From contig JBHLPW010000002.1 of assembly GCA_048939015.1 (NCBI GenBank), positions 88,743-152,742 on the forward strand: a DNA stretch of 64,000 bases, read 5' to 3'. The translations under genes were made by a program, and so were the position numbers. Of this stretch, positions 19,834-26,623 are shown piece after piece; the first letter of the stretch is position 1, and each line of letters begins with the position of its first letter. The notes under the pieces were generated by a model. The model searched no databases. It was not told the DNA's origin and saw nothing but the letters and a program-made list of their open reading frames with translations. The stretch comes from Promethearchaeota archaeon. Its GTDB lineage: Archaea; Asgardarchaeota; Lokiarchaeia; Sigyniarchaeales; SOKP01.

Positions 19834-20481
19834 ATGAGTGATTCAAGTACGTTAGATAAATTAAAAAAAGCAGTTCTTGAAGGAGATGATGAAATCGCCC
19901 AAGGACTAGCTAAAAAAGCACTAAAGGAAAAAATAGAGCCGCTTAAAATAGTAAGTGAAGGTATTGTTCCAGGAATACAAGAAGCAGGTGAATTGTGGAA
20001 ACAGAATGTGTATTTTCATACAGATATAATATTATGTGCTGAAGCTTTCCGATTGGCTATGGAAATCATAGAACCAAAATTGTCAGCGGGAGCGCTTGCA
20101 AAATCAGGGAAAATTGTAATGGGAACAGTAGCAGGAGATATGCATAATCTTGGTAAGATTATGGTTAACGCAACTTTACGAGGCGGAGGCTTTGAAGTTA
20201 TTGATCTAGGGGAAGATGTATCTCAAGATACTTTTATACAAAAAGTAAAAGAATTGAATCCTAACATTTTGGGATTAGGTTGTTATATGTCAACCACGAT
20301 GTTAGAAATGAAAGAAATTATGAGCAGACTTAATAATGAAGGTTTAAGAGATAAAATTAAAGTAATGATAGGTGGTGTCCCCTGTACCCAAGAATATGCT
20401 AACGAAATAGGTGCTGATGCTTGGGGTAAAGATGCATTTGATGCTGTAGAAAAAGCAAAGAAATTGATGGGGGTGTCTTAA
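19834..20481 (+). CDS. Corrinoid (B12-binding) methyltransferase protein, MtaC/MttC-like
   Basis: Cap domain plus GTVAGDMHNLGK (DxHxxG), DLGEDV, VMIGG, IGADAW. Confidence 0.92.
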   Translation: MSDSSTLDKLKKAVLEGDDEIAQGLAKKALKEKIEPLKIVSEGIVPGIQEAGELWKQNVYFHTDIILCAEAFRLAMEIIEPKLSAGALAKSGKIVMGTVAGDMHNLGKIMVNATLRGGGFEVIDLGEDVSQDTFIQKVKELNPNILGLGCYMSTTMLEMKEIMSRLNNEGLRDKIKVMIGGVPCTQEYANEIGADAWGKDAFDAVEKAKKLMGVS

Positions 20482-20482
20482 A

Positions 20483-22063
20483 GTGTCTCAGACAGGAGAA
20501 GTTAAAAAAGACATAGGTAGTTTAATTTCAAGAGGAGATACAGGTGCATTAACTATTGGAGCTCAATGTCATGATCATGTAATGTATCTTACAAAATCAC
20601 CTGCTAAAAAATTCTATAGTGATTTTGCCTTTAATTATGAAATGGGTGAGATAGTAGGGCGTTATTATAATTTAGATAGTCCCGCAGGAGGTCATGATAT
20701 ATATGATCTTGAAGTAGAAGCATTAGGTGGAAAGTTAATTTATGGTGAAAATTCGATGCCTACTATTGATTTTCGTGAACCATTAATTAAGAGTCCAGAA
20801 GATCTTAAAAAACTGAAAATGAAAAAAGTTGATTTCCATACAGCTGGTCGATATCCGTCATTAATGAAGTCGGGTGGATTAGTACAAGCCGATATGGCAA
20901 TGGTTTCTTTTTGTTCACCCTTTAGTTTAGCTGTAGGATTGATGGGGTTTCCAGCACTTATTAAAGCGATGAGGAAACACCCAGATTTCGCTCATGATGT
21001 ATTTAAATTTATCGTTGATGATGTATTAACCCCTTCGATTAAAGCTCAAAATGAAACTATGGATGCTCTCATGGGAGTGGGAGCTGATGCTTGGGCTTGT
21101 GTACCAAATTTATCTCCGAAAGAAATGCAAGAATGGGTAGTCCCTTATAATCAAAGACTTGAGGAGAACGTAAAAAAAATCGGAGTCACCACTATGAATG
21201 TAAGTGGGGATTATTGTGAAGAAAGGATAGAAAAATTTGATCCTAAAATCCTTCATGATAGTTTTGATGTAGAAATTGCTAGCATGGGAGGAACTCCTGC
21301 CATATTTTTAGGTATGGGACGTTGGCATGAGTATCCCCTTGAAGCAGTTCGAAATTACACAGAAAAATTTCGCAAAAAAGGAATTCCTGTGACTGTAACT
21401 GCAGGTATAAACGCCCGATTACTACGTGATGGTCCAATTGATAAAATTGTAGATACTGTTAAGAGATATATTGATGCTTTTGCTCGTGATCATAATTTAA
21501 GTATTTTCCTCATGAATGTACCATATGATACTCCATCAGCTCATATTCATGCTGCTGTAGCTGCTACTCATACATATGGAAAATTACCGATCGCAAATAA
21601 CTTGGATGACATAAATTTTGTGCTGCCAAAGAGAGAGTCTTTTGATGAATGGGTAAATACTGAAGAGGCGAAGAAAAAACCTCCAAAAGAAAAAGAGAGA
21701 AGGGGTCTAGCAGGATTACTATGGGGACAAATGGGGAAAATTAATAATAACCCTAAATTTAAGGAACTATATGCAGATGCAAAGATGAGCTTCTTATATA
21801 ATCTCACTGACCAACGATATGGTGCTTTAATTAAGGTAGAAAATGGAAGATTGGAAGTAGAACATGTGAGGAATGATGAGGAGACATTAAAAAGTCTGAA
21901 GGTAGATGCTTTACTCGCATGTCCAGCAGGTTTATTTTTTGATTTTAGTGCTGGTAAATTATCTAAAGTTGCTATGATAGGTAAAATGCTTACTGGCAAG
22001 CTAAAAGTGAAAGGAGCGAAAAAAATGAAAGAACTGGGAAATATAATGGCTCTAATGAGCTAA
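20483..22063 (+). CDS. UroD/MtaA-CmuA family methyltransferase fused to a C-terminal SCP2 (sterol carrier protein-2-like) domain
   Basis: DLEVEALGG, SPFSLA, 'TPSAHIHAAVAA...YG' TIM-barrel end; C-terminal 'FFDFSAGKLSKVAMIGKMLTGKLKVKG' SCP2-like signature; GTG start 1 nt after the corrinoid gene. Confidence 0.75.
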   Translation: MSQTGEVKKDIGSLISRGDTGALTIGAQCHDHVMYLTKSPAKKFYSDFAFNYEMGEIVGRYYNLDSPAGGHDIYDLEVEALGGKLIYGENSMPTIDFREPLIKSPEDLKKLKMKKVDFHTAGRYPSLMKSGGLVQADMAMVSFCSPFSLAVGLMGFPALIKAMRKHPDFAHDVFKFIVDDVLTPSIKAQNETMDALMGVGADAWACVPNLSPKEMQEWVVPYNQRLEENVKKIGVTTMNVSGDYCEERIEKFDPKILHDSFDVEIASMGGTPAIFLGMGRWHEYPLEAVRNYTEKFRKKGIPVTVTAGINARLLRDGPIDKIVDTVKRYIDAFARDHNLSIFLMNVPYDTPSAHIHAAVAATHTYGKLPIANNLDDINFVLPKRESFDEWVNTEEAKKKPPKEKERRGLAGLLWGQMGKINNNPKFKELYADAKMSFLYNLTDQRYGALIKVENGRLEVEHVRNDEETLKSLKVDALLACPAGLFFDFSAGKLSKVAMIGKMLTGKLKVKGAKKMKELGNIMALMS

Positions 22064-22808: not shown

Positions 22809-22855
22809 ATCGATCTGTAAAAGTTAGGAGGTTAGACTAACTAAAGGTGAGAGAT

Positions 22856-24832
22856 ATGTCTGATAAACAGACCAATGAAAACAATAACGAAGATCAACCA
22901 AGAATAGGTGTGTTCGTATGTCATTGAGGTATCAATATCGCAGGAATCTTAGACATACCAAAGATAGTCGAAGAAATAAATAAATTAGAAAATGTTTGGG
23001 CTTATCCATATTTATCATTATGTACTGAAGGTGGTTCCACCGTGATCAAAGAAAAACATGAAGAAGTTAATTTTAATAGAGTTTTGGTCGCTGCTTGCAC
23101 TCCAAAAACACATCAGCCTGTTTTCCATGCAATATTAACAGAGATGGGGTTACCTCCAAGATACTTAGAATTTGTAAACATTCGAGAACATTGTTCTTTT
23201 GTACATCAAGCTCCAGAAGTACGTGAAAAGGCTGCTCTAAAAGCAATTGAATTAATTAAAGCGGGGATTGCCAGAGCAAAATTATTAGAAGATGTCCCTA
23301 CAAAAACAGTACCAGTAGAACCAGCAGCTTTAGTTGTAGGTGGAGGAATTGCTGGTTTGTCTACCGCTATAGATTTAGGTGATGCGGGATATAAAGTCTA
23401 TTTAGTTGAAAAAAATACGACTATAGGAGGACGTATGTCCCAACTTGATAGAACTTTCCCTACAGATGATTGTTCTATATGAATATTGGGACCAAAAATG
23501 CTTGAAGCTAACCGCCATCCAAATATAGAAATCTTATCTTATAGCGAAGTAAATGAAATTGATGGATATATTGGGAATTTTGAAGTTAAGGTAAGAAAGA
23601 AGGCTCGATTTGTTCTTGAAGATAAATGCACGGGTTGTGGTACATGTACAGATGTTTGCCCCGTTTACATAAGTAATTACTTTGATGAACATCTTTCAGC
23701 AAGAAAAGTCATCGATATTGCATTTGCACAAGCAGTTCCCGCAATATCACAGCTGGATAGAACAGCATGCATCGAATGTTTTGCATGTGTAGATGCTTGC
23801 GAGCAATCTGCAATAGATTTTAGTCAGCAGGATGAGATAATAGAACTCAAAGTAGGTACAATAATAGTTGCCACTGGTTGGGATCTCTATCAAGGAGATG
23901 ATTATGGTTATGGTACTTATGATAACGTTATTAATCAAATAGAATTAGAGAGAATACTTGCTCCAAATGGTCCAACTTATGGTCATCTAAAGCGTCCATC
24001 TGATGGTAAACGTCCAACCAAGGTTTTATTCATCAACTGTGTTGGATCAAGGGATGTAAGTAAGAATGCTCACTGCAGTGTTATCTGTTGTAATCTTTCC
24101 CTGAAAAACTCAAAATTAATTAAATCTGAGTACCCTGATTCGCAAATAGTTTGTTGTTACATAGATATGAGATGTGCAGGAAAAGATTATGAAGAATACT
24201 ATAGAAGATCTCGAGATGCGGGAATAATCTTTGTTAAAGGATTAGTTGGAAAAATTGAAGAAGATCCTCTAACAAAAAACCTTACTGTTCAATTTGAACC
24301 TGTTGGAACGGACTCAGTAGTTACTATGGAATTCCATATGGTAGTATTATCACCTGCTTCACTCCCATCTCAAGGAACAGTTGAAATTGCAAAAGTATTA
24401 AACATGGAAAAAAGTCCCGATGGATTTTTAAAAGAATATCATGCTCGTTTGGATCCAATTAGTACAAAAGTACCTGGAATTTATATTTGCGGTTCTGCTC
24501 AAGGTCAGAAAGAAATCGATAAAGCAGTAAGTCAAGCAAGAGGAGCTGCATCAGTAGCAGGGATTCCTATGGGTAAGGGAGAATATACTATGGAACTAAT
24601 TCGAGCAACTCCTTCGGATGAAAGATGCGCTAAATGCTATAAATGTATTGAAGCCTGTCCTTATTCTGCGATTTCTGTAAATGAACAAGGCAATATAGTT
24701 GTTAACCTTATTAATTGTCGAGGTTGCGGTACTTGTGCTTCATTATGCCCTTCAAAAGCAATTGAATTAACATACTTTAGAGATGATCAATATATGGCAT
24801 TAGTTGACGAATTATTACCAATGGAGGAATAA
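22856..24832 (+). CDS. hdrA: Heterodisulfide reductase subunit A, selenoprotein with two Sec (658 aa)
   Basis: ATG at 22856 after an AGGTGA RBS. One frame continues through TGA 22925-22927 (RIGVFVCH-U-GINIAG) and TGA 23480-23482 (TFPTDDCSI-U-ILGPKM), both at conserved HdrA Cys positions. This joins track ORFs 23042..23482 and 23486..24832. Also GGGIAG, CVGSRD, HCSVICC and two ferredoxin pairs. Confidence 0.93.
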
Positions 24833-24845
24833 AGAGGTAATTAAA

Positions 24846-25304
24846 ATGGCTGAAGATAATGATATTAAAATAATAGTATTTGCTTGCTGGAAATGAGGTT
24901 ATGGTTCAGCGGATATGGCAGGGACTATTCGAGCCCAATATCCGGATTCGATTAGAAACGTATTAGTGCCTTGCTCAGGACGTGTAGGACCAGATCTAAT
25001 TATGCGAGCATTTGGAAGAGGTGCAGATGGTGTCGTTATTAATGCTTGATATCCTGGTGAATGCGATTATGAGACAGGAAATTACCATGCATATAGACAG
25101 GTTGAATATATAAAAGAAATCTTAAAAGTAGTCGGTATAAGTCCTGATAGGTTAAAAATAATCTATTGCACCGCTGCTGAAGGTCAGAAATTTCAAAATG
25201 AGGCTATTGAAATCGATAAAACAATCCGTAAATTAGGACCAAGTCCTTTACATACAAAAGGCACACCTAAAAAAGAAAAAGCTAAAGCGAAAGCTAAAGC
25301 TTAA
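24846..25304 (+). CDS. mvhD: MvhD/VhuD [2Fe-2S] subunit, selenoprotein with two Sec (152 aa)
   Basis: Not in the ORF track. MAEDNDIKIIVFACWK-U(24894-24896)-GYGSADMAG...VPCSGRV...GADGVVINA-U(25047-25049)-YPGECDYETGNY...GISPDRL...AAEGQKF...LGPSP; TAA at 25302-25304; GAGGT RBS upstream. Confidence 0.93.
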
Positions 25305-25310
25305 AAAATA

Positions 25311-25384
25311 ATGTGTTGACTGATGAAGCTGAGTTAAAAAAAATGAGAACTCAGCTGAAGAAATGGGTGCACCATATAACACAT
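25311..25384 (+). ncRNA. Eukaryote-type SECIS element (cis-acting 3' UTR stem-loop)
   Basis: ATGA (25323-25326), perfect 9-bp stem AGCTGAGTT (25327-25335)/AACTCAGCT (25348-25356), A-rich loop AAAAAAAATGAG, then GA (25357-25358). Outer pairing ATGTGTT (25311-25317)/AACACAT (25378-25384). Located right after the mvhD stop. Confidence 0.85.
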
Positions 25385-25483
25385 AAAAAAGTAATAATAA
25401 AATATAAAAAAAAATCAAAAATTTGATTCATAAATTTGGAAAATTTAAAAAATAGTTTAGTATATAGTTAGAGTTGGAATTTC

Positions 25484-26623
25484 ATGGAAGTCATAGCAGA
25501 ATACTTAATAAAGATTGAAGATTTTCCTAAGATCTTAACAACTTTATTAAAGGAAAAAGCTGTAGATAAATTCATAGGTGCTGAACTTAGGGTGGATAAA
25601 AAATCTGGTGCTATAGACCGATTTACTGTTCAGCCTAAATTAGCAGAAAAAGAGGAAGATGTTAAAGATTTTCCTTTAACTCCTCTAATTGCATTTGGAT
25701 ACGCAAGAACAGACTCGGCTTCAAAGTATCTGCATAAATCAGTTGCAGGTGCGATGAATGAAAAAGTAGGATTGGTTGCTCGTCCGTGCGACACAAGAGC
25801 CCTAATAGAACTTGCAAAGATTCGACAAGTAAACCTAGACAATCTCTTTGTGATTGGTATTGAAGATCGGGGAATGCTTCCAAAAGCAGGACGAGAAATG
25901 AAAGCGATTAAGGATGTTGATCCAACTAAAATTGTGAAAGAAAAAGTAGGCGATACTGGTCTTATCGTGAAAATGGAAGATGGAAGCACAAAAGAGCTTA
26001 ATCTTACTGTAGCAGAAAATTGTTTAAGATGCTATCGTAAAATTCCTGTAGTCGCTGATTTAACTGTGAGTGATCTTGGAATTCCAGTTGATTCGGATGA
26101 GATAATCCTAAAAGTTTATTCAGATAAAGGGAGTGAAATTTTAGATAAATCAGGAATTAGTAAAAAACCTCTCCCCGATAAAGAAAAAAAAGCTCATTCA
26201 GATAAATATAATGAAATAATCGAAAAAGCAAAAGAAAAACGAGCAAAAGATTTGGAAGAATGGGATACACTTTCACAAGATGAAAAAATTGCTGAACTTC
26301 TTAAATGTACAATGTGTAACACTTGTATTCGTGGTTGTCCTGTTTGTTATTGTGTGGATTGCATATTAATGAAAAAGAGAAAGGATAAAGCTATTGATAA
26401 AGCAACATATCAATTAACGAGAGTAGCTCATGATGCTGATCGCTGTGTTGAGTGTGGGAACTGTGATAATAATTGCCCTCAAAATTTACCTCTTTCGCTC
26501 TATTTTCAATCTTTGAATGAAGCTTTTAAAGAAAAGTTTGGTTATGAGGCAGGGATGTCTCTCGAAGATATTCCATTTCGATCTGGAAAAGCAATTTCTC
26601 AGATGGAATTAGAGAAAACATAA
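25484..26623 (+). CDS. FdhB/FrhB-like (F420 hydrogenase/dehydrogenase beta family) subunit with C-terminal 2x[4Fe-4S]
   Basis: VGLVARPCDTRALIEL, NCLRC...ADL, CTMCNTCIRGCPVCYCVDC, RCVECGNCDNNCP. Confidence 0.82.
   Translation: MEVIAEYLIKIEDFPKILTTLLKEKAVDKFIGAELRVDKKSGAIDRFTVQPKLAEKEEDVKDFPLTPLIAFGYARTDSASKYLHKSVAGAMNEKVGLVARPCDTRALIELAKIRQVNLDNLFVIGIEDRGMLPKAGREMKAIKDVDPTKIVKEKVGDTGLIVKMEDGSTKELNLTVAENCLRCYRKIPVVADLTVSDLGIPVDSDEIILKVYSDKGSEILDKSGISKKPLPDKEKKAHSDKYNEIIEKAKEKRAKDLEEWDTLSQDEKIAELLKCTMCNTCIRGCPVCYCVDCILMKKRKDKAIDKATYQLTRVAHDADRCVECGNCDNNCPQNLPLSLYFQSLNEAFKEKFGYEAGMSLEDIPFRSGKAISQMELEKT

Follow-up and report, generated by a model that had tools for sequence, protein, structure and literature searches.

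The element described here, which lies in a window of 64,000 nucleotides (the whole stretch of DNA that was analysed) from a Lokiarchaeial (Promethearchaeota) genome, is, with a probability of roughly 90%, the SECIS of an hdrA-mvhD operon and serves all four UGA codons of that operon. The kind of element is already known and this copy is one more member, with nothing new in kind; the comparative data sharpen its model by a predicted kink-turn with a covarying C stem, a covarying side hairpin (P3) with a conserved loop motif, and an outer helix (P1). Asgard SECIS elements have been proposed as a link between archaeal and eukaryotic selenocysteine decoding. A first, sequence-only reading had called the element a SECIS of eukaryote type (AUGA...AA...GA), and the definition of lokiSECIS, the Sec-type hdrA-mvhD genes, the Sec machinery, the contrast with Cys-type genes and the covariation all agree with this call. 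Its remark that eukaryote-like SECIS had already been reported in Lokiarchaeota was also correct, since the text of Mariotti 2016 (PMC4989117) presents such an element as lokiSECIS.

All the features which that reading had listed (P1, ATGA, the upper stem P2, the apical loop, GA and the side hairpin) were found in the sequence of 25311-25384 on the forward strand and were reproduced by RNAfold, in which the three-helix structure was both the MFE and the centroid fold (Table 1). The folding energy was -20.8 kcal/mol, whereas shuffles averaged -9.1 (z = -4.75); none of 200 dinucleotide shuffles folded as well. P2 is an uninterrupted, A/U-rich run of nine Watson-Crick pairs. P1 begins 6 nt and AUGA 18 nt downstream of the mvhD stop codon. 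A stable structure right behind a stop codon would also suit an element that only terminates transcription or protects the 3' end of the hdrA-mvhD mRNA, a reading that we consider hardly credible. Archaeal termination uses oligo-T, and no T run of four or more was present in 25385-25483, while T5 or longer runs occurred in only 10 of 30 orthologous spacers. Moreover, a role in stability would leave unexplained the invariant unpaired AUGA and GA, the A run and AG of the apical loop, and the GC of the P3 loop.

Table 1. Parts of the element and neighbouring genes, with positions in the window.
Feature	Position	Strand	Evidence
hdrA (heterodisulfide reductase subunit A), 661 aa, TGA read as U	22847..24832	+	E 6e-205 to solved HdrA chains
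mvhD/vhuD (FlpD family), 152 aa, TGA read as U	24846..25304	+	Pfam PF02662, E 4e-42
P1 outer helix, 5' strand AUGUGUU (ATGTGTT)	25311-25317	+	RNAfold MFE; two-sided changes in all 7 pairs over 91 copies
Putative kink-turn C stem, 5' strand CU, partner AG 25359-25360	25320-25321	+	Pair counts over 91 copies
Three-nt bulge GAU, putative kink-turn L1-L3; its AU is the first half of AUGA	25322-25324	+	Counts over 91 copies
ATGA (AUGA) core	25323-25326	+	Sequence; invariant in 29 orthologues and 91 copies
GA of AUGA, opposite GA 25357-25358 (SECIS core)	25325-25326	+	Invariant in 29 orthologues and 91 copies
P2 upper stem, 9 bp, 5' strand AGCTGAGTT	25327-25335	+	MFE and covariation
Apical loop AAAAAAAATGAG, 12 nt, eight A then UGAG	25336-25347	+	Sequence
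P2 upper stem, 3' strand AACTCAGCT	25348-25356	+	MFE and covariation
3' GA of SECIS core	25357-25358	+	Sequence; invariant in 29 orthologues; counts over 91 copies
Putative kink-turn C stem, 3' strand AG	25359-25360	+	Pair counts over 91 copies
P3 side hairpin, AUGG, loop GUGCA, CCAU (ATGG-GTGCA-CCAT)	25363-25375	+	MFE and covariation
P1 outer helix, 3' strand AACACAU (AACACAT)	25378-25384	+	MFE and covariation
FrhB/FdhB-like iron-sulfur protein gene, 379 aa, syntenic downstream neighbour	25484..26623	+	Pfam PF04432, E 1.5e-12

Both genes of the upstream operon carry two in-frame UGA codons. In hdrA they are at 22925-22927 and 23480-23482; U27 lies opposite Cys in solved HdrA chains, and the second U lies opposite the X of the DDCxxX motif, the canonical site. 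Those of mvhD (24894-24896 and 25047-25049) are both opposite Cys in solved MvhD chains. A spacer of 13 nt with a GAGGT motif separates the hdrA stop from the mvhD start. All four codons stand at Cys or Sec positions of solved homologues and are upstream of the element, at distances of 276 and 429 nt in mvhD and of 1843 and 2398 nt in hdrA. On the other side, the element sits, as the sequence-only reading had it, between mvhD (ending at 25304) and an fdhB-like gene (the FrhB/FdhB-like gene starting at 25484). In 30 of 30 orthologous loci such a gene comes next after mvhD in the same orientation, at a distance of 125-199 nt. Possibly, as the same reading suggested, the element is internal to a longer transcript. 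The spacer ahead of this gene has short conserved A/T-rich strings close to the gene start (in this genome and in locus L013), possibly a promoter or leader. Elsewhere in the window (19834-22063), a single nucleotide separates a gene for a B12-binding corrinoid protein from the URO-D/MtaA-family gene behind it, whose product has a long extension at its C-terminus (Pfam match to residues 65-365 of 526).

The host genome (4.86 Mb, 125 contigs, 29.8% G+C) encodes tRNA-Sec, SepSecS (477 bits) and a SelB-like factor on the element's own contig, whose score of 236 bits is just below the curated cut-off. Furthermore, it has two selD genes with one UGA each (C80:174-1181, motif HGUSCK; C81:18849-19859, motif FGUNCK). 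Only two L7Ae-family ORFs were found in the genome, of about 125-130 aa each, and a search of the genome for an SBP2-like protein (an L7Ae-domain SECIS-binding protein) found none, in agreement with the text of Mariotti 2016 (PMC4989117).

The distribution of the element follows selenocysteine. The sequence-only reading had staked itself on the structure being kept downstream of orthologous Sec genes and not standing equally behind Cys-only orthologues, and these checks came out in its favour. Among the 12 mvhD homologues of the host genome, the element was found behind all four of Sec type (UGA at both sites) and behind none of the eight of Cys type. Among orthologues it was kept, with covariation, in 29 loci, where its column identity is 90% while the flanks diverge and MvhD drops to about 70%. 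In these loci, compensatory changes were seen in five of the nine P2 pairs and the P3 stem was invariant; the apical loop was 11-13 nt long, because the A run varies, and its terminal AG was invariant. Two-UGA mvhD homologues were widespread among 120 matching genomes of the same order.

Searches with patterns and models extended these results. A strict pattern (core, 9-bp stem, and A-rich loop ending in G) had 14 matches in the 4.86-Mb genome compared with 2-4 in shuffles, and the convincing ones lay behind UGA-containing ORFs. In other genomes, nearly all exact-pattern matches belonged to MAGs with the label Promethearchaeota or Promethearchaeia, as Lokiarchaeota are now called. A covariance model (R2), built from the convincing strict-pattern elements of the host genome and the orthologues, found seven of the eight elements of the host genome, and its sole match on the contig of the element was the element itself. 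Over a phylum-wide sample of 151 genomes it gave about 170 strong matches; each of the 25 genomes of the same family had them, and none of the 125 other genomes did. In the loci fetched around 85 of its matches, some 20 nt or less mostly separated the match from the stop of an ORF with in-frame UGA in a conserved motif, and most of the loci showing no UGA had too short an upstream stretch for the whole ORF to be read. The upstream ORF families were MvhD, PrxL, HdrA-like and several unnamed ones. In other families of the order R2 gave weak or no matches, and in the GC-rich genomes of one family (f4) nothing interpretable; in two single-contig genomes of a neighbouring family (f2), the same layout was recognised by eye despite weak R2 scores. 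A model built from the orthologues only (R1) was too specific and was rejected, as it returned from the genome this copy and two chance-level matches (C82, C6) in coding-like sequence. Two weak R2 matches, on C13 and C11, were likewise not accepted, one being within coding sequence and the other behind a small UGA-free ORF. The match at C13:22365-22432 (-) (E 0.003) comprises AUGA, a P3-like hairpin and a stem in which two pairs are mismatched. It lies behind a small zinc-ribbon-like ORF without UGA and could be the remnant of an element or a chance occurrence.

The element agrees with the published description of lokiSECIS. According to the text of Mariotti 2016 (PMC4989117), lokiSECIS consists of AUGA, a 9-bp stem, an 11-nt loop which starts with adenines and whose last base is G, usually as AG, and then GA; it is present as a single copy shortly past vhuD, common to each hdrA-vhuD pair. 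As far as the texts go, the same single-element arrangement is found in all Loki and Asgard hdrA-vhuD pairs (PMC4989117, PMC11227280). In our copy we found AUGA and GA in these positions, the 9-bp stem, the A-rich loop ending in AG, the place behind vhuD and the Sec machinery. The multi-Sec HdrA, the two-Sec VhuD, the shared element and the lack of SBP2 also correspond to what these texts describe (PMC4989117, PMC11227280). The loop differs in length, with 12 nt in this copy and 11-13 nt in its orthologues versus the 11 nt in the text of Mariotti 2016 (PMC4989117). Huang et al. 2024 (PMC11227280), whose text reports a survey of more than 400 Asgard genomes and seven selenoprotein families, use the name type I eSECIS-like structure and a model with an upper stem of 7-15 bp and at most two mismatches. 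The sequence-only reading had remarked on the shortness of the 9-bp upper stem; it is indeed shorter than the eukaryotic one, but 9 bp is the norm in Lokiarchaeota and no deviation.

With eukaryotic SECIS (RF00031, form 1) the element shares the AUGA/GA non-Watson-Crick core, the unpaired apical adenines and the lower helix, as well as the location 3' of the coding sequence and, as we infer for this copy, distant action on several UGA codons. It differs by its shorter upper stem (9 bp), the third hairpin, the polycistronic mRNA and the fact that no SBP2 homologue was found. Rfam SECIS_1 / RF00031 had no match in the window at the gathering score and none at E up to 10 in 25200-25500; a local Rfam scan gave only chance-level matches, to C/D sRNA and a coronavirus UTR, and no SECIS family. 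With the euryarchaeal SECIS of Methanococcus and Methanopyrus it has in common the 3'-UTR location and an archaeal SelB-dependent system. For the euryarchaeal VhuD elements, the text of Mariotti 2016 (PMC4989117) describes AUGA and GAC/AAC around an extra stem. However, the GAA/A bulge, the 2-3 G-C pairs and the short loop were not found in our element, which has a long A-rich loop where the euryarchaeal one is short and non-conserved.

The core of the element can be described more closely as a predicted kink-turn. In sequence and secondary structure we found a CU/AG stem, a GAU bulge, GA opposite GA, and then P2; judged at this level, a C stem, an R-A-U bulge, tandem G·A/A·G (or A·A) and an NC stem are the consensus pattern of a kink-turn. 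By analogy, the GA of AUGA and the 3' GA would form tandem sheared G·A/A·G pairs. Over 91 distinct copies aligned to the model (alignment A4, in which the fit to the model makes the pair counts lean towards the structure), AUGA was invariant, the nucleotide before it (L1) was A in 63 and G in 23 copies (A or G in 86 of 91), and the 3' partner of its GA was GA in 72 and AA in 19. Pair -1 of the C stem was paired in all 91 copies (G-C 57, U-A 30, U·G 3, A-U 1) versus a shuffled mean of 48, and pair -2 in 75 versus 39, while pairs further out were at chance. The layout of C stem, 3-nt bulge, tandem G·A/A·G and NC stem is like that of the kink-turn and k-junction (Klein 2001; Wang et al. 2014, PMC4005666). 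It also resembles the k-junction in having a three-way junction built beside the kink-turn, but differs from it because the third helix of the k-junction sits at the kink-turn itself, stacked on the C helix (PMC4005666); in our element, compared as secondary structure, the junction is 2 bp away.

A kink-turn that fits the L7Ae-binding consensus raises the idea that the RNA has another role and only an indirect link to selenocysteine; it might, for instance, be a small RNA of the box C/D kind, or a 3' structure that is bound by L7Ae and has a regulatory or stabilising effect. This copy does contain CUGAUGA and CUGA, strings like boxes C and D, and the best weak Rfam match was C/D sRNA (14 bits, E 1.2). 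However, that family has a gathering score of 50 bits, and the orthologues, with UAAUGA and UUGA, do not keep the boxes. C'/D' boxes and a free guide region are lacking, the interior being taken up by a covarying stem of 9 bp. By score, by the boxes of the orthologues and by its paired interior, the element is not a member of the box C/D sRNAs. Against any other kink-turn role speaks the fact that, in the copies examined, those upstream ORFs that could be read far enough carry an in-frame UGA, and that the element is absent behind the Cys paralogues. We regard this explanation as most improbable and retain that of a SECIS.

The outer helix and P3 are integral parts of these elements. All eight elements of the host genome have the same layout, namely P1, a short joiner, AUGA, P2, an 11-12-nt loop, GA or AA, 2-5 nt, P3 and P1'. 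The two selD elements share it although they belong to a separate 'type II-like' class: in these SECIS ('SPS type') the stem has 7 bp and the apical region is larger, yet the outer helix, a C stem of 2 bp (UU/AA; UC/GA) and the third hairpin are all present. The architecture is common to every SECIS class of the genome, that is, to those of mvhD, PrxL, selD and the unnamed selenoproteins. The sequence-only reading had taken the 3' side hairpin to be atypical. This view has to be given up, as an equivalent hairpin was present in 10 of 10 SECIS elements of the host genome and in 91 of 91 related copies.

Over the 91 copies, 92.7% of the cells were paired, compared with 52.6% after shuffling and 33-45% with the partners slid, although the shuffle statistics overstate the significance because the relatives are kin. 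All 20 pairs had two-sided changes (P1 7/7, P2 9/9, P3 4/4). Since alignment A4 is model-fitted, alignment-independent tests were added. In unconstrained folding of the segment from the 3' GA to P1', a hairpin was formed in 91 of 91 copies, and its loop contained GC in 83 of 91, where about 30 were expected from shuffled loops. Whole elements took the three-way topology in their unconstrained MFE fold in 68 of 91 copies compared with 39 of 455 shuffles. As a stand-alone test, a loose descriptor of the three-way junction was discarded: its 45 matches compared with 26-37 in shuffles, and so it is not specific alone and serves only as a conditional test. Used in that manner, only 2% of the loose core matches in the genome also had P1 and P3, compared with eight of eight real elements.

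In the texts of the published work, the Asgard elements have a core, an upper stem, a loop and a generic 'internal loop and lower stem' (PMC4989117, PMC11227280). By comparison with these texts, the 3' side of the 'internal loop' is here the covarying P3, and a covarying 2-bp C stem and 3-nt bulge precede the G·A pairs. The main texts on Asgard elements, as distinct from their figures and supplements, make no mention of a hairpin or junction, and a literature search on SECIS and three-way junctions returned nothing on Asgard elements; set against these main texts, the refinement to a kink-turn on a three-way junction is possibly new. We tentatively propose, at somewhat less than even odds, that P3 (with the conserved G-C/U step in its loop) and the outer helix are required parts of the Lokiarchaeial SECIS, that this SECIS is a kink-turn on a three-way junction and not merely a shortened eukaryote-type hairpin, that P3 is a second recognition surface for the archaeal SECIS reader, replacing the missing SBP2, and that the architecture is apparently undescribed. 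Such a reader would be aSelB itself, L7Ae with a partner, or a new protein. The kink-turn, P3 and the outer helix define a minimal unit of about 75 nt, and a covariance model of this unit finds selenoprotein genes independently of homology, including families without a Pfam match.

From these observations a mechanism may be sketched. The RNA would fold into a kink-turn with a 2-bp C stem, an R-A-U bulge, tandem G·A/A·G pairs and a 9-bp stem presenting an A-rich loop that ends in AG; the short C stem would open onto a three-way junction closed by P1 and carrying P3 with its GC-containing loop. If eukaryotic and euryarchaeal (methanococcal) systems are a guide, the kink-turn and the apical loop would recruit a SelB/EFSec-like factor with Sec-tRNA(Sec) to ribosomes on the same mRNA, directly or possibly via a kink-turn-binding protein such as L7Ae, which is a plausible binder. 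Ribosomes would then insert selenocysteine at all four in-frame UGA codons of mvhD and hdrA, two in each gene. In this scheme the partners that bind the RNA, its action on both cistrons and what P1 and P3 do are presumptive. That one element serves both cistrons is also what the published texts infer (PMC4989117, PMC11227280), and no experimental test of any Asgard SECIS was reported in the texts searched.

That the element acts on hdrA, whose codons lie beyond a stop codon and up to 2.4 kb away, we assumed only because no other element was found. If the element served mvhD alone, the UGA codons of hdrA would be recoded by another signal, for example one inside the coding sequence. The hdrA codons are 1.8-2.4 kb away and in a different cistron, and we know of no experiment that shows a prokaryotic SECIS acting across cistrons. 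Nevertheless, we consider service to mvhD alone unlikely: the hdrA-mvhD spacer is merely 13 nt, R2 gives no second match on the contig, and the literature, to the extent of its texts, describes a single element for all Loki and Asgard hdrA-vhuD pairs (PMC4989117, PMC11227280). Furthermore, in some relatives an HdrA-like ORF directly adjoins its own element, so that this type of element does serve HdrA. We therefore keep to a SECIS shared by both genes.

Several other loci deserve mention. HdrA-like ORFs (DCAIUVLAP) with their own SECIS directly 3' and no mvhD between were seen at L056, L057 and L070, and hence the hdrA-mvhD pairing is not universal in the family. The exact Loki-type hdrA-mvhD SECIS pattern was also met on contigs labelled KSB1 bacterium, Odin-, Hod-, Thor- or Hermodarchaeota (L115, L118, L122, L127, L128), which suggests that these contigs are mis-binned or mislabelled. 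In the host genome, an ORF of about 160 aa at C12:165100-165630 (-) (L156:43-528 (-)) has two in-frame UGA codons side by side (HAD-U-U-ADV) and no Pfam match, and a SECIS with the complete three-way junction lies right behind it. Its family occurs in relatives with HADUUAD or GCUUEKV motifs at seven loci at least (e.g. L063, L088, L092, L097, L099, L102, L109) and is outside the seven families given in the text of Huang et al. 2024 (PMC11227280), and it is therefore a candidate new tandem-Sec selenoprotein. Another contig of the host genome (C121; L157:154-402 (+)) encodes an 82-aa ORF with a hydrophobic N-terminal segment, a GGGG-U-GC motif and no Pfam match; with a SECIS 12 nt past its stop, it is a candidate small selenoprotein. 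Finally, short one-UGA ORFs (DLPIUHRYI, GGPSULCFN, KCKPUFSHF, SIIAUGHIL and GTGTUG) were located just upstream of strong R2 matches at L098, L104, L105, L108 and L086, and may represent additional selenoprotein families.
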